DNA of 64,000 nt from Naegleria gruberi. Its lineage: Eukaryota. The stretch's first letter is position 1. Each line of letters begins with the position of its first letter. Position numbers and translations under genes: made by a program. Location of the stretch: NCBI GenBank assembly GCA_000004985.1, contig GG738919.1, one strand, 5' to 3'. Shown here one piece after another: positions 903 through 47,090 of the stretch. A model generated the notes under the pieces. It saw only the letters and a program-made list of their open reading frames with translations, ran no database searches and had not been told where the DNA came from.

Positions 903-1406
903 ATGCCTTTATCAAACCACTTTCACAACACTCCAGTTCTTTCACACTTTTTGGTAAACGTTGGCTTGTTGAATCTTCGTTTGTTTTTGATTGGAAGATT
1001 GTCAGCAATAGCCAAAAGACGTGAGAAAACTCCAGCCACAGTTGAAGATTTAGGAGTGATTATGGGTGGTGAAAGACAAGCTCAATTGAGTAAGGAGCAA
1101 ATTGATCAAATTAATAATCCGAACAGTTTAGTGAATAGAACTTTGAGAATTCACAGAAATGATATTGAAAATAGTTTGCCATTTGTGAGTGCTGCTGGTG
1201 TGATGGTCTTGTTGTGCTTGGTTCAGGATGCATCTGATGAGAAAACTCAATGGATTGCGAATAGTTTAATGTATTCCTATTCCATTGCTAGATTCGTGTA
1301 TGTCTATGCTTATTGGAATGGTAAACAACCTCATAGATCAATTTCTTGGATCTTGGGTTTCTTGACAACTGCTGGAATTTTGGGATTTTCTTACAAATTA
1401 TTGTAA
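903..1406 (+). CDS. MAPEG-family microsomal glutathione S-transferase-like protein (167 aa)
   Basis: The translation has the MGST1-type motif RIHRNDIENSLPFV (compare MGST1 R-AHLNDLENI-PF). It is a four-helix membrane protein of MGST size (hydrophobic VMVLLCLV, ILGFLTTAGILGF), with an A-rich Kozak context. Confidence 0.65.
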   Translation: MPLSNHFHNTPVLSHFLVNVGLLNLRLFLIGRLSAIAKRREKTPATVEDLGVIMGGERQAQLSKEQIDQINNPNSLVNRTLRIHRNDIENSLPFVSAAGVMVLLCLVQDASDEKTQWIANSLMYSYSIARFVYVYAYWNGKQPHRSISWILGFLTTAGILGFSYKLL

Positions 1407-1471: not shown

Positions 1472-3307
1472 TTAAATTGGAACAATTAATCCAATAAGGA
1501 CAGCTGCAATAGCTCCCACAAATACAACCAATGGATGCCAGAAATCAATCCAATTTACCAATGCAAATCCTAATATTGAAACAGCAGCTAGAGGAACACT
1601 GAGTCCAACAACAGAAATCCACAAAATTACAATATTGTTAATTAAATAGCCAACACAAACAGCATTAATTCCATTCATAGCTTTTTGTACGATTGGCTTA
1701 CTTCTTAAAGATCCCCACAGTGGCACTATTCCCAAAATGAGTAGAAAACCTGGAGCATGGAATGAAATACCAGCAATCATACTATAGATAATGACAATAA
1801 TGAATTTGGTAAATGGTGAAACGGATGATTCTTCTACTGAGCTATTGAGAGTCTCATTATTTGAAAATCCAATAAAATTATTGTTAGAAATTTCATCAAA
1901 ACTAATTGTAGAGTTGGTAACATCCTTGTAGAGTGAACTGGTATAGTTAGAATTTAAAAGATTACCAGCAACAACTGAACCAAAATAAAAACCCAAATTG
2001 AATCGAGGTCCAGGAGCTGCATTTGTGAGAGAGTAGCCATTAATAAATTGTTCAGGTGTTATCCAACCTCTTTCAATCATTTCATCTCGAATGATGACCA
2101 CATTGACAACAGCTCCATTAAAAATCAATGAACCTGACTTGAAAAAGAATGATGACATGATAATCCACTCTGTCCATAAATTAATCTTTCTCTTTTCTAC
2201 TTGATTCGAGAGTTTAACAGTTGGAGAGGTTGATTCCACAATCAGAGCTGCTCCAATAAGACAACCAAGAAGGATAAAAAAGAGAATGAACAAGAATACG
2301 CCAAGTTTGATTGAGGCCATTTTGGCGAATGGATTCGCATCAATTTCAGCAGGTTCCTCTTCTTTCCTCTCTTCTAATAATTCAATTTCTCTCATTTGCC
2401 TTGCATATTTTGGAATAAATGATTGGAAGAATAGTTTGAAAAATGTGAGTTTTTGTCTAAACTTCAAATCTCCATAACTTTTAGCTCCAATTTTCTCAAA
2501 TAATCCAAATTCCTCAATTCTCTTCTTTGATCGATCTCTCACTTCACAATAAAGTATCGATAAAATAGCTCCAATTACTAAAAGTACAGGCAAGAGCCAT
2601 GTCTTTCTATAGAGTAAGGTTACCATAGCAACAATGGTCAATAAAATATAGGGAAACATTTCAGGTTTCTTCTCCTTCTTGGGTTGCCCTTTCTTTTTCT
2701 TTTCATTATCTAACATACTTGAGAATCTGGACATGGATTGCAAAGCAAATGCAATGCCAGAACATGCCAATCCTTTCTGGGCATGAATAAACCATTGAGG
2801 AGCAGTTGAGCTATCATAATCATACATTGATAGACCCAAAACCAAGCAAACAATAAATCCAGGTATAGAAAAGAATAGGTATGATAATATTCCTCCACTA
2901 AATCCATATTTTGGCATTGCTATTTTTCACAATCAATTATCATAATTTTCCACACAATTTTCAATCTTATTTACACACATTTAACATTCAAACTTACCAA
3001 GTGCCATGGCAATTTGACTTGGCTTAGGACCAGGAACAATGTGACTCATCATGTAAACTTCCATAAACTCATTCTCAGTCAACCATTTAGCTTTATCACA
3101 AAATCTTGCCATTAACTGAACAACCCCTCCTCTAAACGATGTTCCTCCCACAATCGACATGTTATAAGCAACATCCCACAACATGTACAAGAATTGTCTT
3201 TTCGAATTATTCCCTTCAACAATAGGAGCAATTATTTCATGATGATCCAAATCGTCTTCCGAATAATCATGATGATTGGAAATTAATTTTTCTTCGTGAT
3301 GATTCAA
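1472..3307 (-). CDS. CHR-family chromate ion transporter (ChrA-like), two exons: 2998..3307 and 1472..2919 (intron 2920..2997, GTAAGT...AG)
   Basis: Exon 1 encodes FMEVYMMSHIVPGPKPSQIAMAL, the N-terminal CHR signature (compare LPGP...IAIG). Exon 2 encodes GYSLTNAAPGPRFNLGFYFG, the second-half CHR signature (compare LPGPLFN). The junction gives ...IAMAL-A-MPKYGF in frame (exon 1 is 103 codons plus 1 nt; exon 2 is 2 nt plus 482 codons). Multi-TM throughout. The true 5' end upstream of 3307 is uncertain. Confidence 0.7.
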
Positions 3308-3615
3308 TTCTTCTCTTCTTCATGATGATGATGATGATTTAATACTTCTTCTTCAGCTATTTGATTTTTATCTTCACCATCCGTGAGGGTTTCATCTTGT
3401 TTCATTTTTTTTTGATTTTATCAATTGATTGAATGTAATGGCGGGATTTTTAATATTAAATAGTCCGAGTTGATTTCAATATTCACCGATAAAGTGCACA
3501 CCCCATGCATGTCATTTTCTGCATTTCTGGGTAATTCATCGGGCAAAGGATGATTCGATTGGATTCGAAAATTAAAACTTTCCTTAATCTTTAAGATGCT
3601 TAATTCTTCTTGAAT

Positions 3616-5052
3616 TTATTGTAATTTATACGATTCTAGGCCAAGATTTGCATTTTCAACCATGCTATAAACTCTGCCATTATCAGCAGTGATAATATTG
3701 GCATATCCAAAGTTCCACTTTGATGGCACAACCTTCTCGACCTTTCCTTTACTAATATCAAAAACACTGTAGCTTCCATTGGTGTAATAGACAAGTTTTG
3801 AGTTGTCCTTTGCAATGCTTGCTCTTGGGACTTCGTAACTGGTATTCAAATCAGTTCCAAAGAAGGCAAATGGTTTGGAGATTTTGACACTTGTGTCACT
3901 ACTCACATGAACTAGAGTTGTGTAAATGTGAATAGCTCTACTGGTGGTTCTGGCCTCACTTGAAAAGACAACTGTTTTGAAAACGTAGGAGGACAATAAG
4001 GAATGATCTAAATAAGTGAGAGAAACCATAAATCCCACCCCAACAATTCCAAAATGTGGAACAGAGTTGTAATTTCCAGAATCAACGTGCATGACACCAA
4101 AATGAGTTGGATTAGAAAATGAAAATGATAAAAATCCATCCACTCCCATATGATTAATTGAGGAAAGGAAATATGTTCCAATACTAACAGAATTAATGAC
4201 TTTTCCAGAAGAAACTGAAATCTTCATAATGTAATGCATCAATGACACGTAAATAAAATCTTGATCCTTCTCCCTGGCCATCAACATTTGACTAGCTCCA
4301 TATGGTTCCTCAGGAGTTGTGATATTCCATTTGACATTTTTTGGATTATCCAAATCAATGCAACTCAACCATTTGGATGCCAAGAAAACAAGACAATTAT
4401 TCTCCTCTGAAATTATGGAACTAACTTGTTGATAGGAAGGTGTTAAAGGAGTAATGGAAAATGAGGTCCAATCATTGGTGTTAATTTTGAGTAAACTAGT
4501 GCCAGAACGATTCAAATTATCATACACTGGAACATAGAGCATTCCCTTGGAATCGAGAAGTAAATTATTCTCCATTGAGTATCTCTGTTCTAATTGGAAA
4601 GGTGTTTTTTCTGCCTTTCCACTTTTTACATCAATCAAATAAAATCCAACCAAGTAAATGATTTGTACATTTGGTTTGGAATAAACTTGTCCCACTGGCA
4701 TGATCAATTTCTGTAAACCAGTGTGAAAGATAACCGAATTGTAAGAGTAGGAATTATCATGAAGGAATGGAACGGAAAGATTGGTGGCAAAATCAGAATG
4801 ATCCACCAAGTAAGGAACACGTCTCGTATGCATGGAATCGAAACCAATTTGTGGCCATGCTGTTGTTGCGTTGGTGGTGGTGGCGGCCAATTTTGTGATT
4901 TTCCACAATTTGGAATTGAGCTTTCCTTTGCCAGCAGAAATACCGAGACATGTCGATGCATTCATCATCATCAACATGATCAGGAGTACAGCACCAATCA
5001 ATACAAGATTGATCGATCTGAGCGAGGTGAAGACTCGATCTGTATTTAACAT
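3616..5052 (-). CDS. Hypothetical type II (signal-anchor) membrane/secretory glycoprotein (478 aa)
   Basis: There is an N-terminal hydrophobic anchor (INLVLIGAVLLIMLMMM). The rest is a long lumenal-looking domain with many N-x-S/T sites. No domain recognised. Confidence 0.5.
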   Translation of the reverse strand: MLNTDRVFTSLRSINLVLIGAVLLIMLMMMNASTCLGISAGKGKLNSKLWKITKLAATTTNATTAWPQIGFDSMHTRRVPYLVDHSDFATNLSVPFLHDNSYSYNSVIFHTGLQKLIMPVGQVYSKPNVQIIYLVGFYLIDVKSGKAEKTPFQLEQRYSMENNLLLDSKGMLYVPVYDNLNRSGTSLLKINTNDWTSFSITPLTPSYQQVSSIISEENNCLVFLASKWLSCIDLDNPKNVKWNITTPEEPYGASQMLMAREKDQDFIYVSLMHYIMKISVSSGKVINSVSIGTYFLSSINHMGVDGFLSFSFSNPTHFGVMHVDSGNYNSVPHFGIVGVGFMVSLTYLDHSLLSSYVFKTVVFSSEARTTSRAIHIYTTLVHVSSDTSVKISKPFAFFGTDLNTSYEVPRASIAKDNSKLVYYTNGSYSVFDISKGKVEKVVPSKWNFGYANIITADNGRVYSMVENANLGLESYKLQ

Positions 5053-6886: not shown

Positions 6887-9479
6887 ATGAACCCCTCCAA
6901 TATCATTCAGAGTCGAAACATTCTTTGTAAAGTCATTTATGACTTTGATGCGAAAGATAAGCAGGAAATGAGTGTCAAGGCAGGTGATGTTGTAGAGGTG
7001 GTGAAACGATACAAAGACGGTTGGAGCTGGTGTTATTTGAAAAGTCGATCAACCGGAACCTTTCCAACAGATTCGCCCTATGGAATGATTCCAACTGCTT
7101 ACCTGACAGAAATTGAAGATTCGCCAGAAGCAACCTCCTCCATAGAACCAACTTCTACTTCTCAATCATTTACAGATTCGAGTAAGAATAATAACTTGGA
7201 ATTGACCACAAGTTTCGTCATTTCCAAAAATATTCATGCCAATGCAGAACCAAAGCAAACTCACATTTTTCAAGACGAAGACTTTAACCAAGTAATGACT
7301 GAACAGAGTGATAACCTCTCTGTGGCAAGTTATAGAACTGATTGTACTGATCTTTCAATTGGAGGAGAACGAAGGTCGAAAAAGAAGGAACTCTTATCCA
7401 AGATTGGATCCTTCTTTAGAAAATCAAAGAAGAATGAGAATTCTAGTGTAGAAACTCCTAAAACTCCAAGATTTATCATCAAACATGAAAGTTTTAAAAC
7501 TTCAAGTTCAATAATTACTGAGGAGAAGATTGAAAAGGTTGAGAAGATTGAAAAGACGAAAATTTCCAATGTTATTAATCCAACGTTTCCAATTGATGTG
7601 TTGAATGATGTCAAGAAGAAGGTTATTACCAAAACAGAAACAACCAAACGAGAATCCATCTCATTCAATTTATTCTCCAGACAAAAGAGGAGTAAAAGAC
7701 ATAATCACCATCAAGCAACTGCCACTGATCATATGCAATTTATTGCTGAAAAATTAAAGCATCTCCATAGAAGAAAAGCAATGCAACACTATTTGAAAAC
7801 TGAAACTCGTTTCAAAAAGGCAAAGAAGAGACTCGAGTTGATTAAGGAAACAATAGATACCGAGAGAACCTATGTGAATTTGTTGAAAGCTTTCATTGAC
7901 ATTTTCTATTATCCTATCGTGAATGATTCTGGTCATGGAAAGGGAATTTTGAAGAAGGAAGTTTACAACACTCTATTTAGTAATATTGAACAAATTTACA
8001 AAATTAATAATACCTTACTCCATGATTGGGAGAATGAATATAATACGAATTATCCATTTGTGAATATTGGAAAGGCATTCTCTCAAATTTCTCCCTTCCT
8101 AAAAGCTTACACCATCTATATCAACAACTTTGATAAGGCACAAGAAATGTTTGAAAAGCTCAGAGAAAAAGACAAGAGATTTAAGGAATATCTCACTGAA
8201 TGTTACAAGAACAAGTTGGTAAAGGGAACTCTATTGGGTGGTTTTCTCATTTTACCAGTTCAAAGGTTTGTTTTCAATTTTTAATAATGATTGTTGTTTA
8301 ACATTTAAAAGAATTCCGAGATATAAACTTTTAATTCAAGAAATGCTCAAGAATACGCCACCAACTCATCACGAATATGAAATCTTGCAGAAATGTGCCA
8401 AAGAAATTGAATCCATTGCAGCTTTTGTCAATGATGAGAAGAGAAATGTGGAACAGAACCAGACTGTATTTGAAGTTCAAAACATGGTTCAGAAACAATA
8501 TCCACAATTTGTCCAACCCAATAGAAAATTCATCAAGAAGGGATCCATGAAAATTAAGATTACCATTCACAGAATTGAGGAACAATTGGACAATAGAAGA
8601 GGTGCCACTTCAAGCAATCACTCCTCTTTGAATTCTACACAAGATTCAAATCTCAGTTGTCTAATGACATGTAGAGAGGCCAAATTCGATGTCTACCTCT
8701 TCACAGATGTATTGGTCCTCATTGAAATGGAAAAGAACAAATCCATGATTCTGACCGATGAAAAAGTTCATTTTGTCTTTTTACAATTTGTTGATTGTAG
8801 AGATTTTGTTAGAATTTCACAAAATGGAAGATCAAGAAATTTTATCGAATCACCAGATTCACTCCTTTCCAATCACAATTCCAAGCGAAGTAGCTTACAA
8901 TGGGATGATAATATTTTCAAGAGAATTGAACATGAAGATTTCTCCTTTGTGATTGAAGCTCTTTTCAAGGGAGTAAAGACTGAATATTCATTCATGACCT
9001 CAAATCTGAATGAGAAGAAGGCGTGGATGAAGAGTATTCGTGATTGTTTGGAAGGACTCTCAAGAGGCAATATTTCGAAAGGAATCGAACAAGACATTTA
9101 TCTTATTGGAAAGGAGAGAATTTCACTCAACAAGATTGCAAAATGCAAATTGGAAGAACATCAATCCTTAGAAAAGGGCTGCCTCCTAAAAGTTTCCTAT
9201 CTCACTCAATTGGAACAACACTTGAACAAGAAGAAACAACAACTCACCAAATTACAGAAAGAAATTGAAATTTACAATCTCGATCGAGATCAAGTCATGC
9301 TCGAAGCCAAAACTCTCCAGGAAAAGAAGAGCAAGATTCGTGAGGATTTGAAATTCTACTATCTCTCCATCCAAGAACGAGATCAAACCATGATGAAACT
9401 CTTGAATGAGGATCAATCTTTCAAATTAATTTTTGATGATGTCCCAACAGTTGATTCAGAAACTGTTTACAAAATGTAA
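6887..9479 (+). CDS. SH3 domain-containing Rho guanine nucleotide exchange factor (DH-PH), two exons: 6887..8265 and 8312..9479 (intron 8266..8311)
   Basis: The N-terminus is an SH3 fold (ILCKVIYDFDAKDKQEMSVKAGDVVEVVKRYKDGWSWCY). The DH domain (TERTYVNLLKAFIDIFYYPI ... GGFLILPVQR) is interrupted by a 46-nt GT..AG intron. Splicing joins it in frame to IPRYKLLIQEMLKNT, the conserved DH helix. A PH-like, coiled-coil C-terminus follows. Confidence 0.75.
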
Positions 9480-30942: not shown

Positions 30943-31015
30943 GCCCGTCTAGCTCAGTCGGTAGAGCGCAAGGCTCTTAACCTTGTGGTCGTGGGTTCGA
31001 CCCCCACGGTGGGCG
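30943..31015 (+). tRNA. tRNA-Lys (anticodon CUU), 73 nt
   Basis: gcccgtc / tagctcagtcggtagagc / gcaaggctCTTaaccttgt / ggtcgtgggttcgacccccac / ggtgggc gives a cloverleaf with a 7-bp acceptor stem (two G-U pairs), a canonical D-arm, an anticodon stem-loop with CTT, and a T-arm GTGGG-TTCGACC-CCCAC. It is very close to the eukaryotic cytoplasmic tRNA-Lys-CUU consensus. Confidence 0.9.
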
Positions 31016-36390: not shown

Positions 36391-37440
36391 TTAACCTACC
36401 TGTTTACAATGTTCTGCACATTCGGATTCACTATGGCCATCAAATACTCCGAACATGGCATGGAATTTAAATTGAGAAATTGGATGCTGATTAAGGGCTT
36501 CCTCGATATTCTTTACGAAAAAGTGTTCATCTTCCATTGTTGGTCTTTTTCCTTGAGCACTCGCTGATGAATATGATAATTTTCTAGTATGTGTAAATAG
36601 AGATTCAAATTGCCCATTGGACATTTGAGGTAAGGCATGAACGCTAATTGGTCTGTGGAGAGGATTTCTCATCTTGTCTATTTTCAATTCATCTAGAATT
36701 GATTTTTTACTTGGTGTAGTAGCCGAAGGTTTAGAAGGGGATGAAGATGATGAAGCAGAAACATTTCTTGTTGGAAATCTTCCTAGGGTATTATTTGCAT
36801 TACTCGTTTGAATACCTCTTCTCGGTTCTATTGAGGTTGAATTATTTCTATAGGCAGGTGATGTAGTAACATCTTTAAAAGCAGCCGTATTGGGCGAACT
36901 ATTGAGTGATGTTGGAGTATTTCCACCACCCTTTGGAGGAGTTGAAGGAATCATGGAGAGAGTTTGTCCTGATCTGAAAACTTTGGGAGAACCCACATCA
37001 AGTTTCCTATTCTTATTACCAGAAGGTGTTCTCGAAACATTGATGAGAGACATTGTGTTAGGGTAACTCGAGTTTTTAGTTGATGATTGTGGTGATGTAT
37101 CATGAGAGAGAACACTTCCAAATGATGCAGTTGTACTACTACCATTATTATTTGAAGCACTACCTCCTGAGGAAGGTGATACAATACTGTTGTTTCCACT
37201 ATTGCCTCCAGAACCACCACTAGAACCAAAACCAATATTTTGATTATAAACATTTACATGTAATGATCTTAGTGGTTTGGAATGGCTCGGACTAGCAACG
37301 AAATTCTTTGATGAGGAAGGTGAGGTTAAGTGTTGTTGAGAGGAGTGATGATGGAGTGAATGATTGGAATTATTGTTGGGAGATGTTGCTGAATTGTTGC
37401 CGCCTCCTCCATTTGGTGATATCGATAAACTCCCTCTCAT
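36391..37440 (-). CDS. Ser/Asn/Gly-rich protein segment ending in the first two PP2C phosphatase motifs. It ends at a splice donor and looks like a first exon or truncated gene.
   Basis: The C-terminus reads RPTMEDEHF...AMFGVFDGHSESECAEHCKQ, which matches PP2C motifs 1-2 (R..MEDxH ... FFGVFDGHGG). It is followed immediately by GTAGGT, with the donor at 36398-36399. No downstream exon encoding the rest of the PP2C fold is visible. Confidence 0.4.
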   Translation of the reverse strand: MRGSLSISPNGGGGNNSATSPNNNSNHSLHHHSSQQHLTSPSSSKNFVASPSHSKPLRSLHVNVYNQNIGFGSSGGSGGNSGNNSIVSPSSGGSASNNNGSSTTASFGSVLSHDTSPQSSTKNSSYPNTMSLINVSRTPSGNKNRKLDVGSPKVFRSGQTLSMIPSTPPKGGGNTPTSLNSSPNTAAFKDVTTSPAYRNNSTSIEPRRGIQTSNANNTLGRFPTRNVSASSSSSPSKPSATTPSKKSILDELKIDKMRNPLHRPISVHALPQMSNGQFESLFTHTRKLSYSSASAQGKRPTMEDEHFFVKNIEEALNQHPISQFKFHAMFGVFDGHSESECAEHCKQVG

Positions 37441-38664: not shown

Positions 38665-39199
38665 TTGATATTGGTGCAATCCATTCACTCCATTATGTAT
38701 CATTCCGAAACTCTTATCCATATAATAGTTATTATTTAATATATTAATAATAATTATCACAACAATGAATATTATTAAAACAGAAAATGAAACTCTGGGA
38801 AATAGTATTTGTGTCCTTGATCGTCGTAGAATCATTTTTTTGTGGTGATTCTCGTTTCTTGATTACAAAATTACATTCTTGGTGGTGTGAAAGATTTTTA
38901 TGATTATTGTAAAGTTGTTAAATAAATCATCAAATTTAGTAATTGTAAACTCAAAAACCCACATGTATCAGCTTATACTTTCAACTAAAGGAATTTTGAA
39001 ATATCAAGTGCAGTCAACTGTTTCTATACCAACGCACTAATCGAATGCGCATAATAATTTGTACACCCTCATTAAGATGAAACCTAGGTGGTTCCAACTT
39101 GTATCACATATCGGCCAATTCAAAACTCTAAATCCCGACTATTCATTTCCTTTAAATTTCACACAAAAAGCCGAAATACTAAATAAATCTCATAAAAAA

Positions 39200-39919
39200 A
39201 TGTCTCAACAAGTAATTGATCTCAACAAGCAACATTTCGACAAGATGGCTCTCGATTGGGGAACCAATCCAATCTTTGCCGAGATGAGTAGAAAATTTGC
39301 AACTGGTATTATGGAAGAATTGAGAAAACACCTCACGAATCAATCATCAATGCAAGTGATGGATTTTGGTTGCGGAACTGGAGCTCTTTCATTGTATCTA
39401 TTGAATGAATATGGACAGAGTGTTGAATGTTTGGATGCAGTAGATGTGAGTGAAGGCATGTTGAAGCAATTTGCTGAAAAGAAGGAAAAATTGGTCGGAG
39501 AAGGCATGTTGAATGGTAACTTGTTGCAAATTCATAATTTAAATTTGACCACGGATGATCATGCACTGATTGGAAAGAAGAATAGTTATGATTTGATTGT
39601 GTCCTCCATGTGTTTCCATCACTTGCCAAATATTCCAGAAAAACTCAAGCTTTTTGCTTCCTATTTGAAACCTTCTGGAAAACTTGTCTTTTTGGATATG
39701 GACAAGGATTTTCCACTGATTGAAACATTCCATCCAAGAAATATGGGTGATGAATTGCAATATGAAAGCGGATTCTCTGAGGCAGAGTTGAGAGAGTGGC
39801 TCGATTTGGCTGGCTTTGAAAATCATCAATTTGCTAGAAATGTCACAATTGAAAAGAAGGGATGGGACGATGTGATGAGAAGTTACACTCTCATGACCAC
39901 TACTTCATTTAAAAAGTAA
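39200..39919 (+). CDS. Class I SAM-dependent methyltransferase (about 239 aa from the ATG at 39200; the track ORF starts at 39059 from a non-ATG codon)
   Basis: Motif I VMDFGCGTGALSLYL, then an acidic residue after beta2 (ECLDAVDVSEGM) and LIVSSMCFHHL (motif II/III region). A-rich Kozak context at 39200. Confidence 0.65.
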   Translation: MSQQVIDLNKQHFDKMALDWGTNPIFAEMSRKFATGIMEELRKHLTNQSSMQVMDFGCGTGALSLYLLNEYGQSVECLDAVDVSEGMLKQFAEKKEKLVGEGMLNGNLLQIHNLNLTTDDHALIGKKNSYDLIVSSMCFHHLPNIPEKLKLFASYLKPSGKLVFLDMDKDFPLIETFHPRNMGDELQYESGFSEAELREWLDLAGFENHQFARNVTIEKKGWDDVMRSYTLMTTTSFKK

Positions 39920-40018: not shown

Positions 40019-40870
40019 TTATTCTTGAGCCTTCTTCTTTTGTTTTTGTAACCATTCACGATAATTCTTATCAGTTCCACACAAATAATCCCACCAAGTA
40101 AATGTTGAAGCATAATTTCCATTGTAAGTCTTGTGATGGAAATCGTGATGAAGTGGACCACTATAGAATGGAATTAAATTACTCATACACCATGGGAAGT
40201 AGAAACCTGTATGTGTATCAATGGCTTCAATTTGACGAATTGTCATCCATACCCACCATCCAATAATGTGTGGAATTCCAAAAAGGAATGGTCCAATAAA
40301 CGAACCAACACCCAACAAGACAAACTCTGTACAACTAGCATATGATGAGCAGTAACCAATTGGTGTCTGATATTCGTGATGCATTTTGTGAATATGCTTA
40401 TAGGCCCATTCAGTATGCAACCAACGATGAATCCAATAAAAGTAAGCATCTTCAATCACTAAGAAAATCAAGGAACGTCCAACCATATCCCACCATGGTG
40501 GAATATTCATATCATAACTCACACCAACCCATTTAAGAACAGGATATCCAGTATAAAGCAATGGTAAAAGCAACAAGTGATTAAGTACTAATTGAAAAAC
40601 ACAATTCCAATCTGTTAACCTTTCTTCTTCTTTCAATTGAAGTTTGTACTTGTAGAGGAAAGAAGGCTTGAATTTCTTAATTAAAAACCATGGCAAGGAC
40701 AAGATTCCATACAATACAAAGATATATGCAAGGGATACATAGGTTGTAATTTCCAACTCTGAAAAGTTTGAACGAATTAAATAATAAAATTGATGCAGGG
40801 TATCCATTTGATTTAAATCGACATTTCCAACCCAATCAGGGAGAGTAGAAGAAGGGGTGGTACTACTCAT
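40019..40870 (-). CDS. Fatty acid hydroxylase superfamily enzyme (sterol desaturase / C-4 methylsterol oxidase-like), 283 aa
   Basis: There are three histidine boxes (HRWLH, HKMHHEYQTP, HHDFHH) spaced as in the ERG25/ERG3/SC5D family, and four TM segments. Confidence 0.75.
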   Translation of the reverse strand: MSSTTPSSTLPDWVGNVDLNQMDTLHQFYYLIRSNFSELEITTYVSLAYIFVLYGILSLPWFLIKKFKPSFLYKYKLQLKEEERLTDWNCVFQLVLNHLLLLPLLYTGYPVLKWVGVSYDMNIPPWWDMVGRSLIFLVIEDAYFYWIHRWLHTEWAYKHIHKMHHEYQTPIGYCSSYASCTEFVLLGVGSFIGPFLFGIPHIIGWWVWMTIRQIEAIDTHTGFYFPWCMSNLIPFYSGPLHHDFHHKTYNGNYASTFTWWDYLCGTDKNYREWLQKQKKKAQE

Positions 40871-41321: not shown

Positions 41322-43073
41322 ATGATTTCTTCCTCATCTCGTCATCACAATGATGATGAAAGTGTTAACAAACAACAATATTCGGAACGAGAAGAATTTA
41401 ATGGTAATCAACAAGAGGATAATATAATTAATAATCAACAAGAGAATCAAATAATAGGAAATAATAATGATGATGATAGAGACGATGATGAACCAATTAG
41501 AATATTAACAACAACTAATAATACAAAATTGCAACAATTACGAGCCTATGTATGGAAAATAGCCAAATTATCATTTGATATGCTTCCTATTGGTTTTTTA
41601 AGCTTTGGAGGTCCAATGGCTCATACTTCACTGCTACAGGATCGATTTGTTATTAATCATCAATGGTTAACTCCAGAGGAGTTTTCAGAATTGTTTTCCA
41701 TTTGTCAATCATTGCCTGGACCATTAAGTACCAAATTGGTGATTGCTATTGGAACATTGAGAGGAGGATATGTTGGAGCTTTGGTGAGCTTTCTGATATT
41801 TTCATTACCAAGTGGATTGGTGATGGGAATTGTTGGAGTTTTGATGAAAGATGTGGACACGGATATTCAATTTCCTTATTGGATAAAGATTGCTTTGAGT
41901 GGATTTTCGTGTGCTGCCGTGTCCATCATTATGCATGCTGGTTATTTGATGGCCAAGAAATTGACAGTTGGTTCCAAGTTGTATCAGAGCTTAATGATTG
42001 GAGCATTTATATTATTTTTGATATATCAAACTTGGTGGATGTTATTATCGATCATGATTTTTGGAGGACTTTCGAATTGGTTTGGGGAATATGGAGGCAA
42101 ATATTTCAAAAACAAGTATGAAAATTTCACAAATTCATATGAACAAAATGCAGTAGGAAATAAGGGAAAGTTTGAAAGCATTATCAAATTTTTGAAATTT
42201 TCCAAATATTTCATGTTGGAATTATTTACAGATTCAAAGGTGAAAATTAAAAAGATTTTCAACAAGGGAATATTCAAAAGATCTACCAATTATGAGCAAG
42301 TTGATGAGGCAACACCCTCTCCTGCTGCTGAGACACCCTCCTCCACTACTGCTAGTCAAATCATTTCCAACAGTGTTGACAAATCCAACGATAACGAAAC
42401 AAGCAATACCATTGAAAAGAGCAAGGATATTTCACTTAAACCAATCATGGGAATAATTTTTATTACCATCTTCATCATGCTACTACTAAGCTTATTCATT
42501 TCAAGACAATTTATCGAGTGGACTCCACTCTATCTTGCAGAGGGATTTTTCAGAATTAGCAGTTTGATATTTGGTGGAGGGCATGTCATTCTTCCTGTTA
42601 TTTTGAATGAGTTTTCCGTAAATCCTAATAATTCCACCTTGCCAACCATTTCAGAATCGCAATTTTTGAATGGATTTGCCCTACAGAATGCCCTACCAGG
42701 TCCATTATTCAATTTATCAGCATTTGTTGGTGGAGTGATTGGAGGTCCACTCGGTGCATTCATTTCCTGGTTTTGCTCCTTCCTACCGCCATTCCTTTTC
42801 ATGTGGACTGCCATTCCTCTTTGGAACAAGTACAGAGATAATAAGAGTGTAAAAATAATTCTGGCTGGAGTGAATGCCTCAAGTGTTGGATTTGTCTTTG
42901 TAGCAGGTTATGTATTGTGGTTGTCATGTGTGGAAACTCAATTCGTGCCAGCTGCCTGTACAGTCGTGTTGAGTGTTTTGTTACAATCTGTGATTGATGC
43001 ACCTGCACCACTGGTTATTCTCTCGGGAGGTCTCATTCGACTAGCTCTACAACCTCTAGCACAAAATTCTTAG
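41322..43073 (+). CDS. CHR-family chromate ion transporter (ChrA-like), bidomain, 583 aa
   Basis: The first half has LSFGGPMAHTSLLQDRFVINHQWLTPEEFSELFSICQSLPGPLSTKLVIAIG. The second half has FGGGHVILPV...FLNGFALQNALPGPLFNLSAFVGG. These are the duplicated CHR signatures. A roughly 200-aa hydrophilic linker sits between the halves. Confidence 0.75.
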   Translation: MISSSSRHHNDDESVNKQQYSEREEFNGNQQEDNIINNQQENQIIGNNNDDDRDDDEPIRILTTTNNTKLQQLRAYVWKIAKLSFDMLPIGFLSFGGPMAHTSLLQDRFVINHQWLTPEEFSELFSICQSLPGPLSTKLVIAIGTLRGGYVGALVSFLIFSLPSGLVMGIVGVLMKDVDTDIQFPYWIKIALSGFSCAAVSIIMHAGYLMAKKLTVGSKLYQSLMIGAFILFLIYQTWWMLLSIMIFGGLSNWFGEYGGKYFKNKYENFTNSYEQNAVGNKGKFESIIKFLKFSKYFMLELFTDSKVKIKKIFNKGIFKRSTNYEQVDEATPSPAAETPSSTTASQIISNSVDKSNDNETSNTIEKSKDISLKPIMGIIFITIFIMLLLSLFISRQFIEWTPLYLAEGFFRISSLIFGGGHVILPVILNEFSVNPNNSTLPTISESQFLNGFALQNALPGPLFNLSAFVGGVIGGPLGAFISWFCSFLPPFLFMWTAIPLWNKYRDNKSVKIILAGVNASSVGFVFVAGYVLWLSCVETQFVPAACTVVLSVLLQSVIDAPAPLVILSGGLIRLALQPLAQNS

Positions 43074-43076
43074 AAT

Positions 43077-44084
43077 TTATTTTCGATTTTCAACCCATTC
43101 TACAATTTTAGAAACAATACTTGGAGTTGGTTTGTAATTTGGAATGGCAAGTTGACGAATTAATTTTTCACACACCACTTGTTTTGATTCCTTTTCAAGA
43201 GCTAATCTTACACTTTCCAAAACACGTCCATTAATTTCAAATCGTTGCAAGCATTGAATTTGTTTGACTTTCATACCAGCTCCTCCTTTCCTTATTACTC
43301 CTTTCATTACATAAAGGGTTATTTCCTTATCCCAATTTGAATAACTTTCAGTTGGAAGTTGAAATTGGGATTTTTCTCTACTTTCTTCATCTTCTTCCTC
43401 TGGTTTTGCCTCTTCTTGAACTAGTGCAGAAATGGAAGATGGTTCTTCATTTGAAATTGGTGTTGTTACTTCCTTTTGAATTGTTTCAATATTAATAATC
43501 GATTCTTTGTGTTGAGTAGGAGTTGCTGTAGCAGCAGGAGTCACAACTGTTTCTTCCTCTTTGATAACTTGTTTAATTATTTCTTCCTTGACTTGCTTTT
43601 CTTGATGAATAATAGAACTACTTGACAAATCCCTTTTAATTGGAGTTTTTACCTTTGAGGCAGCAAACTCTACCAACTTGATTGAAAACTTGCTCAAATC
43701 AATACTTTCATCCCTCTCAATAAAAACACACTTGTTATTCACAATTCTGTTGAATCTTTCCATAGCAGCTTGATAACTAGTTTCCGAAATTTGTACCTGT
43801 AATTCCTCCATATCACTCTCATCCAAACCTAATTGTTCAAACAAATCCAATTCCTTCCGATTCAATCCAGCACATTCCTTCAATACATTTGTTAAATAAT
43901 TATTTGTTTGTTGAACAGGATTGAATGTGGTCATGTGAAAATGTTTTCCCGAACAGCTAGGATATATATAATTCTTCTTGTCATTGTAATTAATGGCTAA
44001 TAATTTGATGGTCGTGGTGTGGTGTTGTTGTTGTACTTTGAGAGAGTTGGAAATGATTGATTTACTTTTTAACATTTTTTTCAA
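43077..44084 (-). CDS. Hypothetical protein (335 aa)
   Basis: The ORF is clean with coding-like composition. An acidic middle region is followed by a compact C-terminal domain (YVMKGVIRKGGAGMKVKQIQCLQRFEINGRVLESV...). No confident family assignment. Confidence 0.45.
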   Translation of the reverse strand: MKKMLKSKSIISNSLKVQQQHHTTTIKLLAINYNDKKNYIYPSCSGKHFHMTTFNPVQQTNNYLTNVLKECAGLNRKELDLFEQLGLDESDMEELQVQISETSYQAAMERFNRIVNNKCVFIERDESIDLSKFSIKLVEFAASKVKTPIKRDLSSSSIIHQEKQVKEEIIKQVIKEEETVVTPAATATPTQHKESIINIETIQKEVTTPISNEEPSSISALVQEEAKPEEEDEESREKSQFQLPTESYSNWDKEITLYVMKGVIRKGGAGMKVKQIQCLQRFEINGRVLESVRLALEKESKQVVCEKLIRQLAIPNYKPTPSIVSKIVEWVENRK

Positions 44085-44284
44085 TAAAGTTTAAAATTCT
44101 CCATTTGAGGAGATGGTGGAAATCTTTCCATTATTGGTTGCAGTAATATCTGAATATTTAACAATGTTTCTTAAATATTTAAATGTTTTGTAACATTATT
44201 AAAAATAGTATTGAACTATTTAATAATTTTTGGCGCCAAAATTCAACACTTACAATTTCCACCTTTCATAATAATCAAAAAAAA

Positions 44285-45280
44285 ATGCAAGAATCAAACT
44301 CTACAAACCAGCCATCACCCGAAACTTTTTTCACCATCGATCCATCACGAGTGGCACTCAACGCAGGCTTGATACTCATGGAGGAAGACAAGGATTACGG
44401 AAAGGCTTTGAATTTCTTCTTACAAGCGGCCAATATGGGAAATGCGAATGCTGAATATTATGTTGGACACATGTATCATAAAGGCTTGGGAATGGAACAA
44501 AAAGAGATTCCATTGGCTTTCATGTGGTATCAGAGGGCTGCACAGAAGGGACATGTGCAGGCACTTTATTTGGTTGGAATTTTTTATTATTTTGGATTTG
44601 GTGTGGAGAAGAGTTTTGAAAAGAGTTTTGAATATTGTAACAAAGCAGCAGAAAGTGGACATTCACAGGCACAGTTTGATGTTGGATTGAATTATTTGGA
44701 AGGAGAAGGAGTGGAGAGAAATGTGGAATGTGCCATGACTTGGTTTACCAAATCTGCCAATCAGAATAATTTATTTGCCATGAAGAAATTGGCTCAATTG
44801 TATGATATTGGTGATGTAATTCCAAGAAATGTAAATGAAGCATTCAAATGGTGTTTGAAGGCTGCAGAATTAGGTGATTCTGGTAGTCAATATGATGTTG
44901 CTGCCATGTATGAATTTGGAGATGGTACTGAAAGAGATTTATCCAAAGCTTTTGAATGGTATTCCAAGTCAGCTCATCAAAAGAATCCCCAAGGTGAATT
45001 CCAAGTTGGATTAATGTATTGCTTGGGTAAACATGTGGAAAAGGATCTCAGTAAAGGTTTGGAGTTTGCATTGAGAGCTGCTGAACAAGGATTGTCAAAA
45101 GCTCAATACGTTGTGGCTGACATGTATGCAAGAGGCGATGGCACTCCAATTGATGTTATGAAATCCTACGAATGGTACTCTAAATGTTGCAATGCATGTA
45201 TGAATGAAAATAATGGAGATTTACTTCAGAAATGCGTTGCTAGATTGAACATGCTCGCCAAACAATTATCACACAAATAG
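44285..45280 (+). CDS. Sel1-like repeat (SLR) protein (about 331 aa from the ATG at 44285)
   Basis: There are eight or more tandem Sel1 repeats of the form A..W(Y/F).KAA.(Q/L)G...AQ..(V/L)G.(M/L)Y..G.GV..(D/N)...A, for example AFMWYQRAAQKGHVQALYLVGIFYYFGFGVEKS and AFEWYSKSAHQKNPQGEFQVGLMYCLGKHVEKD. The A-rich start is at 44285. Confidence 0.7.
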   Translation: MQESNSTNQPSPETFFTIDPSRVALNAGLILMEEDKDYGKALNFFLQAANMGNANAEYYVGHMYHKGLGMEQKEIPLAFMWYQRAAQKGHVQALYLVGIFYYFGFGVEKSFEKSFEYCNKAAESGHSQAQFDVGLNYLEGEGVERNVECAMTWFTKSANQNNLFAMKKLAQLYDIGDVIPRNVNEAFKWCLKAAELGDSGSQYDVAAMYEFGDGTERDLSKAFEWYSKSAHQKNPQGEFQVGLMYCLGKHVEKDLSKGLEFALRAAEQGLSKAQYVVADMYARGDGTPIDVMKSYEWYSKCCNACMNENNGDLLQKCVARLNMLAKQLSHK

Positions 45281-45446: not shown

Positions 45447-47090
45447 CTATCTCTTCTTGGATGGATTTTCAACATTTGCTGTTGAGGTTGAGGCTTGCTT
45501 TCTCTTTTTTGTTGGAGCTTGTTCTTCACCTGTTTTGATAAAGTGTTCCCAGTCAATCTTACTGTTAATGTCATTCTTGAATTTGGAAAAGTAATTCTTC
45601 CATCTCTTATCCATATTTTTACAAGTTGAAACATATTCCTTAAAGATTGCTCCATTTTGATCTAATTGCGCCAATATTTCTGGAGTTTCATGAATCCACT
45701 TGATAGTACTAATGAGTGAAGAAATCTCTAATTGAGATTTCCAATTGAAGAATTGGTATGGATACGAATCTCCAGTAAATCCTGGTGAGGTTTCGTATGC
45801 TCTATCGAGAGCTGAAAATAGAACTGTCTGGTCATTGATATCAACATCTAGTAATTTCATATAACCTGAGGTAACAAATTTTCTAAATACATCCAAATTC
45901 TTGCAAGATCCAACAAAGGACACTCTTGTTTTCAGATTGAATGGTAATCTGTTTCTCATAAAGAATTCATAACACTTTTCATGTTCAAGAGGATCAATAG
46001 TTACATAGTCAATATATTGTCCATTAACAATAGTCTGTGCTTGAATAAAACCATTTGTAATGCACAATATATTTACAAGTCTGTCATTACGTTTCAGTGC
46101 AACCATTTTCTTAGGGTTGTTTGGAGATAAACTTGAAAAATACCCAAAAGTACTGGTTGATGCTGGTGTATCATCCACAAATGGCCTGGTTTTAATATTA
46201 TCAATGTCGAGATACTCAAAGGATGGGATTTCAAAGTGTTCAAGCTCGCATTCATGGCTCATGTATTGATAAAGGTGGGTTGACTCGATTTCGCTAGTTA
46301 TGAATTTTGGGTATAATGCATAGAATGGAGTGTCTAGAAATACAACAGTTTTGAGATATTGAAAGTAGTTAGTTTGCTTGGTAAGCTTAACATCTTTGGA
46401 GAATTTTTGTAATTGAAGCATATAAGAATTACTAGTAACAATTTTTTCCTCAAATGGCTGGAATTCCAAAGCTATTGAGCTATGGTAATGACTATTATAA
46501 GTTCTAAATCTTGAAAGATAATCATCTACATCCACATCATTCAATTCATTCCTCACTTCACAATTGGAAATCACAAGAGTTTCAACAGAGGTTCTTCCAA
46601 TAGCTTTCAAAATCTCTGGAGTGACCATCATAAAGTGGAGAGTGACCTTTTTAACTCCCCTACAATTTGCAATAATCTTCAACAAGTCGGAATATTCCAT
46701 TCGATAAGGATCGACCTCAGCTGTACGATTTTATCATTTCAATTGATGGTCCATCATCGGAAACATGCGATCAAATTGTAAATTTTAGAAAGAATTATTA
46801 AACAATAAAAACAAACAGCATTACTTACAAAAATCCAAATGAAAAGCCGAATATTCAAAGTAATCATTCATCAGAAAATTGAAAATATCCTTCCACGATT
46901 TACAAACTCTAGACAATCTAAAATAATTGGGCAAAACTGGAAGAAAGGACAAGATTTCGGAATAAATTTCCAATGGAAGATCTTCCCACATATTTGCTAA
47001 TGTTCTAGATCCTTCTTCTTGCACAGTACTAGGACTACTGGGACTAACTGGATGAATGTCGGTGGAAGTCAAAGAGTTTGAGTTTTGCAT
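45447..47090 (-). CDS. F-box protein, two exons: 46829..47090 and 45447..46720 (intron 46721..46828, GTAAGT...CAG)
   Basis: Exon 1 carries the F-box WEDLPLEIYSEILSFLPVLPNYFRLSRVCKSWKDIF and ends ...AFHLDF plus 1 nt at GTAAGT. The acceptor CAG joins it in frame to S-EVDPYRMEYSDLLKIIANCRGVKKV... The ATG is at 47090; the track's longer ORF start is non-ATG. Confidence 0.6.

Follow-up and report, generated by a model that had tools for sequence, protein, structure and literature searches.

A 64,000-nucleotide stretch of the Naegleria gruberi genome (contig GG738919.1; hereafter the window) contains two resident genes for long-chain CHR transporters, gene 1 (NgCHR1, NAEGRDRAFT_74954) and gene 2 (NgCHR2). 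Their sequences mark them as ancient paralogs, and the encoded proteins are candidate oxyanion carriers. We consider this explanation, taken as a whole, to be likely.

An earlier note on this DNA had recognized two CHR-family paralogs and had named failure of a search with the Pfam profile Chromate_transp (PF02417) to reach both halves of each protein as grounds for refutation. The search bears the assignment out. At a cutoff of 28.6 bits, the profile matches both halves of each protein, in two stretches each (220.7 bits, E 1.5e-65 for gene 2; 152.3 bits, E 1.6e-44 for spliced gene 1). The exon-1 ORF of gene 1 exceeds the cutoff on its own (36.3 bits, positions 1–64), and exon 2 alone scores 109.4 bits. 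By tblastn of the window, gene 1 and gene 2 are the only CHR loci. The organism had been taken for a member of the Amoebozoa, but N. gruberi belongs to the Heterolobosea (Discoba); N. gruberi XP_002670126.1 (D2W0R6) and exon 2 of gene 1 share 100% identity.

Gene structures and family membership

Coordinates of gene 1 and gene 2 features in the window
Feature	Coordinates	Strand	Basis
Gene 1 exon 2	1472..2919	minus	ORF, PF02417 match, splicing analysis
Gene 1 subfamily-specific insert in second CHR half (54 residues, 381–434)	1805..1966	minus	Alignment and sequon count
Gene 1 intron (78 nt, GTAAGT...AATAG, phase 1)	2920..2997	minus	Sequence and spliced-junction alignment
Gene 1 exon 1, from first in-frame ATG (3184)	2998..3184	minus	PF02417 match and alignment
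Gene 1 probable 5' extension	3185..3405	minus	Upstream ATG 3405 and comparison with contig L002
Gene 2, single-exon CDS (583 aa and TAG stop)	41322..43073	plus	ORF, Pfam, TIGR00937
Gene 2 first CHR domain (residues 82–247)	41565..42062	plus	PF02417 profile positions 2–164 of 166
Gene 2 inter-domain linker (residues 248–373)	42063..42440	plus	AF2 secondary structure and pLDDT
Gene 2 second CHR domain (residues 374–572)	42441..43037	plus	TIGR00937 positions 177–367

Gene 1 has two exons, as proposed earlier. The spliced junction IAMAL-A-MPKYGF aligns with IAMGVAIPKYGM in the N. lovaniensis ortholog and with IAMGIAIPRYGI in the N. fowleri ortholog, which indicates that the two-exon structure with its GT-AG intron is real. 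The start of the gene had been placed at 3307, but the ORF simply begins there with a TTG; with translation from the ATG at 3184, the first in frame, the spliced protein is 544 amino acids in length. Exon 1 encodes residues 1–62 and the first base of codon 63, which form the beginning of the first CHR half, and has FRGG and VPGP instead of FGGP and LPGP. Exon 2 encodes residues 63–544, in which the first CHR half is completed and the linker and second half follow, and ends with a TAA stop codon (1472..1474). The public model of gene 1 (481 amino acids) is missing exon 1 and therefore lacks part of the first transporter domain.

The coding sequence probably continues upstream of the in-frame ATG. 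The frame opened by the ATG at 3405 stops in the window at 3306..3304, because a 2-nt insertion at 3316..3315 puts it out of frame. In an independent, allelic contig (L002; 98.7% identical), the equivalent ATG is in frame and begins an uninterrupted 139-amino acid exon-1 ORF (MKQDETL...). The N. lovaniensis and N. fowleri orthologs of gene 1 likewise have long N-terminal extensions, which are acidic and His-rich.

In gene 2, the first CHR domain contains FGGP (residue 95) and LPGP (residue 131), and the second contains FGGG (residue 417) and LPGPLFN (residue 458). A disordered tail of ~60 residues forms the N terminus. In the linker, the final helix of the first half is prolonged, and an amphipathic helix (residues ~284–314) and a disordered stretch rich in Ser, Thr, and Asn (residues 319–357) follow. 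Gene 2 is intact and canonical in sequence, and would be expected to keep canonical CHR activity. An exact-sequence look-up of its protein in a public protein collection gave no match; look-ups of gene 1 and of a neighboring FA_hydroxylase gene (40019..40870) matched only short ENA contigs.

AF2 models were obtained for gene 2 (pLDDT 81) and for P0118, an ortholog of gene 1. Both models are confident (pTM 0.76 each) and have the same order of helices in both halves, and both proteins are thus modeled as polytopic membrane proteins with two homologous multi-helix halves. The long hydrophilic linkers described earlier in both proteins are seen in the alignment and in the AF2 model. A sequence search of the PDB returned no homolog, and a Foldseek search against solved structures, anion carriers included, returned none at E<=0.001.

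The two proteins differ in how closely they follow the family. An alignment of 71 sequences has 23 columns with at least 90% conservation, which we took as the near-invariant CHR residues. All but one of them are present in gene 2 (22 of 23), the exception being S413 for glycine. Gene 1 is identical to gene 2 at 17 and to the consensus at 18 of the 23; its losses are G96R, A100V, L131V, G418N, and G420A, and it retains every proline and glycine of the PGP motifs. The literal signatures SLPGP...IAIG and LPGPLFNL, which the earlier note had attributed to both proteins, are found as such in gene 2; gene 1 has degenerate versions of them, IVPGPKPSQIAMAL and APGPRFNLG. The published CHR-domain motif, GGX12VX4WX16PGPX10GX7G (PMC2751784), is unusable as written, since with the literal x10 spacing it matches none of 19 tested sequences, including Pseudomonas, Microvirga, and cyanobacterial homologues. 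With a spacing of x9–10, it matches gene 2 in its first half, as well as gene 2 orthologs and several bacterial long-chain CHR proteins, but neither gene 1 nor its orthologs, which have FRGG and a deletion of 3–4 residues.

The curated whole-protein cutoff of NCBIfam TIGR00937 (2A51, the chromate efflux transporter subfamily) is 171.7 bits. Gene 2 passes it (202.6 bits) and gene 1 does not (119.5 bits); we therefore file gene 1 as a divergent member of the CHR superfamily and not as a TIGR00937-type chromate efflux transporter. With 24–74 bits against cutoffs of 250 bits for these single-domain models of ~180 amino acids, both proteins fall outside the Bacillus-type short-chain ChrB and ChrA equivalog groups (NF053759 and NF053760). 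Overall, the profile matches and near-invariant residues identify gene 1 and gene 2 as ordinary members of the two-domain long-chain CHR family (LCHR; TC 2.A.51).

Residence in the genome and paralogy

Both loci are resident eukaryotic genes, as the earlier note had supposed. The CHR family is predominantly prokaryotic and the majority of database matches are bacterial, as would be expected if the genes were contamination of the assembly or very recent transfers from bacteria. However, gene 1 has a spliceosomal intron, the GC content of both genes is that of the surrounding DNA (uniform across the window at 0.31–0.38), and the neighboring genes are eukaryotic, encoding SH3+RhoGEF, MAPEG, and FA_hydroxylase domains. 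Orthologs occur in three further heterolobosean genomes, on 0.3–1 Mb contigs of N. lovaniensis, N. fowleri, and Willaertia magna. Whereas the best bacterial matches are local (13–41% of the query, 25–44% identity), the closest relatives come from eukaryotes. We rejected contamination or recent transfer, which the intron, GC content, neighbors, and orthologs effectively refute.

Gene 1 and gene 2 share 24% identity over 431 aligned positions. All trees are distance-based, and their sampling is biased towards gene 2 matches. In a first neighbor-joining tree (127 sequences), the gene 1 clade lay on a long branch with 17–40% support at the relevant nodes; this placement was set aside as poorly supported, and the tree was rebuilt with branch-breaking sequences. 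The resulting main tree (bootstrapped neighbor-joining; 60 sequences, 383 columns, 200 replicates) has the long branch split by Willaertia, N. fowleri, and environmental sequences. Group A, which contains gene 1, has 100% bootstrap support, as does the union of A, A2, and one environmental sequence. Group B, on the gene 2 side and including Willaertia ABK040_003658, has 95%, and group C has 94%. All heterolobosean groups, two ciliates, and one environmental sequence form a single clade (92%). An exhaustive profile search with the gene 1 clade found Willaertia proteins and other heterolobosean paralogs as its nearest relatives, and reached E<=1e-30 for only 14 proteins among 1.84 billion. An equivalent K/F-rich linker segment aligns across all heterolobosean paralogs.

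These comparisons argue that gene 1 (subfamily A) and gene 2 (the conservative subfamily B) are ancient paralogs, in agreement with the old duplication suggested earlier, and that the four heterolobosean subfamilies (A, A2, B, and C) were produced by duplication within this lineage and split before the divergence of Naegleria and Willaertia. What had been described as a simple pair of copies is instead two members of this four-part set. The ~38-kb proximity of the copies, which had been thought worthy of note, is not conserved, the N. lovaniensis orthologs being on different contigs. Acquisition by two separate horizontal transfers would account for the low identity between the copies and for the separation, poorly supported as it was, of their clades in the first tree. 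We find this account very improbable: all heterolobosean groups fall together once the long branch is broken, the gene 1 profile ranks other heterolobosean paralogs ahead of nearly everything else, and all three groups have in common a long linker, in which an amphipathic K/F-rich segment aligns and which is too long for the 389–428-amino acid relatives.

Deeper relationships are less firm. The old horizontal acquisition suggested earlier is one possible origin of the genes, which the trees do not confirm. The two proteins are not inside a bacterial clade, so the bacterial nesting that the earlier note had named as evidence against its reading was not found. The joint grouping of eukaryotic CHR sequences is weak in both neighbor-joining trees (bootstrap 23–40), and a clade joining eukaryotes, Bacteroidota, and red algae has 70% support in the first tree and 22% in the main tree; a sister relationship of eukaryotic CHRs to a Bacteroidota group would be weakly supported at best. 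Fungal CHRs form their own clade (100% support), apart from the clade of heteroloboseans and ciliates. The eukaryotic distribution is patchy but wide, extending over Heterolobosea, ciliates, brown and red algae, a glaucophyte, chytrids, and other fungi, which raises the question of whether eukaryotic CHRs are ancestral or transferred.

Divergence of gene 1 and proposed function

Gene 1 belongs to a subfamily that, judged by its sequences, is fast-evolving. Glycines have been lost from both of its FGG(G/P) motifs, and the alignment shows a 3–4 residue deletion in the first half. These losses, together with the TIGR00937 score and the missing first-half motif, mean that its activity may differ or be lost. 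The insert in its second half contains four of the five N-x-S/T sequons of the protein. P0118, P0119, P0120, P0268, and P0128 likewise have many sequons in the corresponding loop, even though the loop sequence varies among them, and in the ortholog model the pLDDT of this loop is low. We presume that the insert forms an exoplasmic, glycosylated loop.

The same features could be read as signs of a decaying or nonfunctional copy: the upstream ATG is out of frame through the 2-nt insertion, the glycine motifs are eroded, the first half is shortened, the score is under the subfamily cutoff, and the branch is long. The comparison with the allelic contig argues otherwise. All 14 differences in the coding region downstream of Met-1 are synonymous, including all 12 in exon 2, and indels occur in the intron and the 5' extension; the intron has one mismatch and a 2-nt indel, as expected for noncoding DNA. 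The altered motifs recur in the orthologs from N. lovaniensis, N. fowleri, and an environmental sample (53–59% identity), an in-frame ATG directly precedes the first CHR domain, and the fold predicted for the ortholog is confident. A pseudogene is accordingly quite improbable in our estimation. The pattern of differences points to gene 1 being still under purifying selection, and in our reading the gene is functional, though probably altered in its specificity, regulation, or location.

The alterations extend across subfamily A/A2, that is, gene 1 and its Naegleria and Willaertia relatives. In these, the replacement of the Gly-rich motifs is conserved: FGGP has become FRGG with a deletion, and FGGG has become F/Y-x-G-A/G. 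They also have a Lys-rich loop and a sequon-rich loop, the latter predicted to be exoplasmic and probably glycosylated. A tentative possibility is that A/A2 is a neofunctionalized CHR offshoot specific to heteroloboseans, more than a copy subject to drift, that differs in substrate or mode of transport from canonical chromate/sulfate carriers, with gene 2 as its unannotated canonical partner.

Each of the two proteins would be a polytopic membrane carrier whose two homologous halves are joined by a long lineage-specific linker. By analogy with characterized family members, the proteins of gene 1 and gene 2 may be secondary carriers for tetrahedral oxyanions, sulfate and chromate among them, and their function is presumed to depend critically on the Gly-rich and (L)PGP motifs conserved in both halves. 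Secondary oxyanion (sulfate/chromate) transport is the most likely function; its substrate, direction, and membrane location are inferred. Physiologically, a part in sulfate or oxyanion homeostasis would be likelier than dedicated chromate resistance, as suggested for Neurospora CHR-1. A literature search on Naegleria and chromate transporters found no paper linking the two.

Dedicated resistance would mean that the genes encode ChrA-like pumps exporting cytosolic chromate via the proton gradient. The family name suggests this, bacterial ChrA proteins are presumed to be efflux pumps driven by the proton-motive force (PMC8940164), and all characterized bacterial long-chain members are efflux pumps (PMC8940164, PMC2751784); gene 2 also scores above the cutoff of the 'chromate efflux transporter' subfamily. 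Nevertheless, we think this role unlikely. N. crassa CHR-1, the one characterized eukaryotic member covered by the papers cited here, raises chromate uptake and sensitivity (PMC6278149), and it responds to sulfur starvation, its gene being induced 45-fold and its promoter bound by CYS-3 (PMC8550094). Free-living amoebae have 4–5 conserved CHR genes per genome, a number more in keeping with routine nutrient uptake than with defense against a toxicant that is seldom met. Within the window, nothing resembles the accessory genes of chromate resistance.

The practical value of these findings lies mainly in annotation and comparative genomics, and understanding of the CHR family is unchanged. One N. 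gruberi CHR gene appears to be absent from public protein sets, and the other lacks its first exon there. The expansion into four subfamilies in Naegleria and Willaertia provides a candidate set for sulfate or oxyanion uptake, or for the handling of metal oxyanions, in free-living amoebae, among them relatives of the pathogenic N. fowleri.

Comparison with known CHR systems

The short-chain CHR pairs (SCHR), such as Bacillus subtilis YwrB/YwrA (Chr3N/Chr3C), have the same CHR domain as the Naegleria proteins. In these pairs, two separate proteins of ~180–200 amino acids each have to act jointly, whereas the two domains are fused in Naegleria.

Bacterial LCHR proteins, including ChrA of Pseudomonas aeruginosa pUM505 and of Cupriavidus metallidurans (TC 2.A.51, TIGR00937), resemble the Naegleria proteins in having two PF02417 domains per polypeptide and Gly-rich FGG(G/P) and LPGP motifs in each half. 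The motif GGx12Vx4Wx16PGPx9Gx7G is matched by gene 2 exactly as by a Pseudomonas homologue. However, the Naegleria proteins are 544–583 amino acids in length or longer, compared with ~390–410 for bacterial LCHR proteins, and have in addition a disordered N-terminal tail and a ~125-residue linker with an extra amphipathic helix. Gene 1 has an intron, and the Naegleria loci have neither operon context nor a ChrB-type regulator. Besides the local best matches given above, identity to bacterial LCHR proteins is ~27–31% over the whole alignment.

The other heterolobosean paralogs, auto-named 'Chromate transporter' in UniProt, are proteins of the same kind as gene 1 and gene 2. They comprise C9374_009003, C9374_000845, C9374_005386, C9374_010601, and C9374_006775 in N. 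lovaniensis; FDP41_010434 and FDP41_006694 in N. fowleri; and ABK040_005361, ABK040_003658, ABK040_013531, and ABK040_015025 in Willaertia magna. C9374_009003 and FDP41_010434 are the direct orthologs of gene 1 (53–59% identity), and C9374_000845 (47%), ABK040_003658, and an environmental sequence (43%) are orthologs of gene 2. The linker segment is common to all, and the sequon-rich insert to subfamily A/A2. The N. gruberi copies differ from these paralogs solely in annotation, gene 1 being truncated in public records and gene 2 absent.

Neurospora crassa CHR-1 (trm-50, NCU01055) and other fungal CHRs are, like the Naegleria proteins, eukaryotic and two-domain, with an expanded linker. The other fungal sequences that were aligned are only ~26–34% identical to gene 2 and belong to the same weakly supported eukaryotic assemblage in the trees. 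Among these systems, N. crassa CHR-1 provides the best functional analogy for the Naegleria CHRs.

Gene models and genomic setting of NgCHR1 and NgCHR2

The window encodes two proteins belonging to the CHR (chromate ion transporter) family (Pfam PF02417, TC 2.A.51), and tblastn with several CHR proteins as queries located only these two loci. PF02417 matches both halves of each protein, far beyond chance, confirming the earlier note's observation of two CHR genes in one 64-kb window; its interpretation was partly supported, as described below. The two proteins share 24% sequence identity over 431 aligned positions. The proposal that NgCHR1 has two exons was borne out by a short canonical intron (GTAAGT...AATAG). 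Joining nucleotide 2998 to 2919 preserves the frame, and the splice is confirmed by the junction peptide IAMAL-A-MPKYGF, whose aligned counterparts in the orthologs of N. lovaniensis and N. fowleri are IAMGVAIPKYGM and IAMGIAIPRYGI. The spliced product starting at the first in-frame ATG (3184) is 544 amino acids in length and contains two PF02417 stretches (152.3 bits, E 1.6e-44).

Features of the CHR loci and of the surrounding window
Feature	Position	Strand	Evidence or remark
NgCHR1 ORF, 481 aa	1472..2917	-	PF02417 (Chromate_transp) match
NgCHR1 upstream ORF, 108 aa	2981..3307	-	PF02417 match
NgCHR1 intron, 78 nt	2920..2997	-	sequence reading
NgCHR1 insert, 54 residues (381-434), second half	1966..1805	-	alignment
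NgCHR2 ORF, 583 aa	41322..43073	+	PF02417 matched twice, E 1.5e-65, 220.7 bits
MAPEG	903..1406	+	neighbouring ORF, adjoins NgCHR1
SH3+RhoGEF	6887..8284		neighbouring ORF
Methyltransferase	39059..39919		neighbouring ORF
FA_hydroxylase (fatty-acid hydroxylase/sterol desaturase-type)	40019..40870	-	neighbouring ORF, adjoins NgCHR2
Sel1 repeats	44183..45280		neighbouring ORF
Mid-sized ORFs	3616..5052, 36391..37440, 43077..44084, 45447..46700	-	no Pfam match at E<=0.001
tRNA-Lys (CTT)	30943..31015	+	sole tRNA and sole Rfam family match in window
Very long uninterrupted ORF, 1686 aa	54464..59524	-	

The 5' end of NgCHR1 was compared with L002, a short ENA contig that is the allelic counterpart of this region (98.7% DNA identity; assembly ERZ929261, run ERR1078381, labelled metagenome). 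In the window, an ATG at 3405 opens a frame (MKQDETLTDGEDKNQ...HHHHHEEEKN) that ends at a stop at 3306..3304; the CHR frame is open from 3307 and has no ATG before 3184. Relative to L002, the window carries insertions of 2 nt (3316..3315) and 3 nt (3338..3336), which disrupt the reading frame opened by the upstream ATG, and L002 has one continuous 139-amino acid exon-1 ORF from the equivalent ATG. Either the 2-nt insertion is an allele or an assembly error, or the start is at 3184, which immediately precedes the first CHR domain. All 12 differences from L002 in exon 2 are synonymous, as are both of those in exon 1 downstream of 3184; indels and two amino acid changes occur in the intron and 5' extension. 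The exclusively synonymous differences in the CHR coding parts indicate, at the sequence level, that NgCHR1 is under purifying selection, and on these grounds a pseudogene was rejected. L002 and a second contig of that ENA assembly, L001, are short contigs from a Naegleria gruberi-like genome, and both encode proteins that match ORFs of the window exactly. Gene calling on these contigs followed prokaryotic rules, which split NgCHR1 at its intron.

Exon 2 is 100% identical to N. gruberi XP_002670126.1 (EFC37382.1, UniProt D2W0R6, NAEGRDRAFT_74954), which is located on a 216-kb scaffold. Naegleria is a heterolobosean (Discoba), and the suggestion to search other Amoebozoa thus addressed the wrong supergroup. 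The public model consists of the 481-amino acid ORF only, starting at an internal Met of exon 2; without exon 1, the first transporter domain misses its first part. The exact NgCHR2 protein was not found in a collection of 15 billion protein sequences, and none of its 116 matches was an N. gruberi protein. NgCHR2, although intact and conserved, therefore seems to lack a gene model in public N. gruberi protein sets.

The residency of both genes, as opposed to contamination, was upheld. The window is AT-rich (GC 0.31–0.38 in each 2-kb bin) with no compositional break in these bins at either locus, and the products of the surrounding ORFs are typically eukaryotic or of ordinary cellular kinds. 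Contamination was ruled out by these neighbours, the NgCHR1 intron, and the uniform GC content. The phylogeny proposed as a further test agrees, as the Naegleria CHR genes are not nested in any bacterial clade in neighbour-joining trees.

Each CHR gene directly adjoins a small membrane-enzyme gene (MAPEG and FA_hydroxylase, respectively), with no functional link evident from this adjacency. The ORF at 3616..5052 is directly upstream of NgCHR1. The NgCHR2 stop (TAG, 43071..43073) and that of the convergent ORF at 43077..44084 (TAA, 43077..43079) are separated by three bases, and their 3' untranslated regions must therefore overlap.

Canonical and divergent CHR proteins

NgCHR2 is a canonical CHR protein, passing the cutoff for TIGR00937, the NCBIfam chromate efflux transporter subfamily (202.6 versus 171.7 bits). 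It has FGGP and LPGP motifs in its first half and FGGG and LPGPLFN in its second, and of 23 positions that are near-invariant in the family it retains 22. The published CHR motif (x10) fits its first half in a form with x9 spacing, as it does in a Pseudomonas homologue. The AF2 model is confident (pLDDT 81, pTM 0.76) and has a disordered N-terminal tail (residues 1–58) and two helix series; the linker of ~125 residues (248–373) contains an extra amphipathic helix (about 284–314) and a disordered stretch (319–357).

NgCHR1 is a divergent CHR protein, scoring 119.5 bits against TIGR00937, under the 171.7 cutoff. In its first half, FGGP is replaced by FRGG followed by a 3–4-residue deletion; FGGG is replaced by FNGA, and LPGP by VPGP or APGP. 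It also has an extra Lys-rich loop (NEKKKKGQPKKEKK) and an insert in its second half, which contains four of the protein's five N-x-S/T sequons. Equivalent loops in the orthologs and in subfamily A2 (see below) are likewise sequon-rich without being conserved in sequence, and the insert may form an exoplasmic N-glycosylated loop. The NgCHR1 changes are common to the N. lovaniensis and N. fowleri orthologs (53–59% identity), and the N. lovaniensis ortholog is predicted to fold into the same helix series (pTM 0.76); the divergence is thus old and maintained.

Heterolobosean subfamilies and their origin

NgCHR1 has orthologs in N. lovaniensis (C9374_009003), N. fowleri (FDP41_010434), and environmental sequences; those of NgCHR2 are N. 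lovaniensis C9374_000845 (47% identity), an environmental protein (43%), and Willaertia magna ABK040_003658. An exhaustive search of 1.84 billion representatives with a profile of the NgCHR1 clade returned 3353 matches at E<=1e-3, only 14 of them at E<=1e-30. Outside the clade, proteins of Willaertia magna and further heterolobosean paralogs matched best, followed by a Mortierellaceae fungus and C9374_000845. Four heterolobosean subfamilies emerge: A (NgCHR1 and orthologs), A2 (N. fowleri FDP41_006694, N. lovaniensis C9374_010601 and C9374_006775, and Willaertia ABK040_005361), B (NgCHR2 and orthologs), and C (N. lovaniensis C9374_005386, and Willaertia ABK040_013531 and ABK040_015025). The adjacent Willaertia magna models ABK040_004692 and ABK040_004693 (172 and 366 amino acids) look like halves of one A2-type gene split by annotation. 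All heterolobosean groups have a long linker in which an amphipathic, K/F-rich segment can be aligned; relatives of 389–428 amino acids within the same clade are too short for it.

The trees used distance methods only, with sampling biased towards NgCHR2 matches. In the second (neighbour-joining, 60 sequences, 383 trimmed columns, BLOSUM62-based distances, 200 bootstrap replicates), support was 100% for A, 87% for A with A2, 100% for these with one environmental sequence, 95% for B including Willaertia, and 94% for C. All heterolobosean groups joined two ciliates (Pseudocohnilembus and Pseudomicrothorax) and one environmental sequence at 92%. Because Willaertia has members in B, C, and A2, the A/B split is older than the Naegleria–Willaertia divergence. 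The proximity of the two copies, about 38 kb, had been considered notable; the N. lovaniensis orthologs sit on separate contigs of 455 kb and 738 kb, so the linkage is not conserved and the spacing has no evident meaning.

Beyond Heterolobosea, the family is present in ciliates, a brown alga, a red alga, a glaucophyte, chytrids, Mucoromycota, Taphrinomycotina, and several marine-protist transcriptomes. Support at the deeper nodes was weak. An all-eukaryote grouping received only 23–40% bootstrap support across trees, with red-algal sequences falling outside it in the second. The nearest bacterial neighbour in both trees was a Bacteroidota group, and the clade enclosing it with the eukaryotes and red-algal sequences had only 70% and 22% support in the first and second trees, respectively. 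Eukaryotic CHRs may go back to a single ancient transfer, to more than one, or to vertical inheritance.

Function and comparison with known CHR proteins

NgCHR1 and NgCHR2 are membrane proteins of the CHR family with two domains each; both are conserved and subject to selection. They would act as secondary carriers for sulfate-like oxyanions, with the Gly-rich and PGP motifs of both halves presumably being functionally critical. NgCHR2 would be expected to retain canonical activity; the conserved motif changes and added loops of NgCHR1 suggest altered specificity, regulation, or location. With four to five conserved CHR genes per genome, a nutrient or homeostasis role seems more plausible than one devoted to resisting chromate. 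The ChrA proteins of bacteria are presumed to drive chromate efflux as chemiosmotic pumps (PMC8940164). In the fungus N. crassa, CHR-1 leads to uptake of chromate and to chromate sensitivity (PMC6278149). Sulfur starvation induces the CHR-1 gene (trm-50, NCU01055) 45-fold, and the sulfur regulator CYS-3 binds its promoter (PMC8550094).

The CHR family, with long members of two domains and short members of one, is known from archaea, bacteria, and fungi (PMC8940164, PMC2751784); that eukaryotes have it, and that the N. lovaniensis and N. fowleri proteins carry automatic 'Chromate transporter' names, was likewise known. To these, this analysis adds the correct organism, a corrected NgCHR1 model, the apparently unannotated NgCHR2, and recognition of a four-subfamily heterolobosean CHR expansion with one fast-evolving branch.
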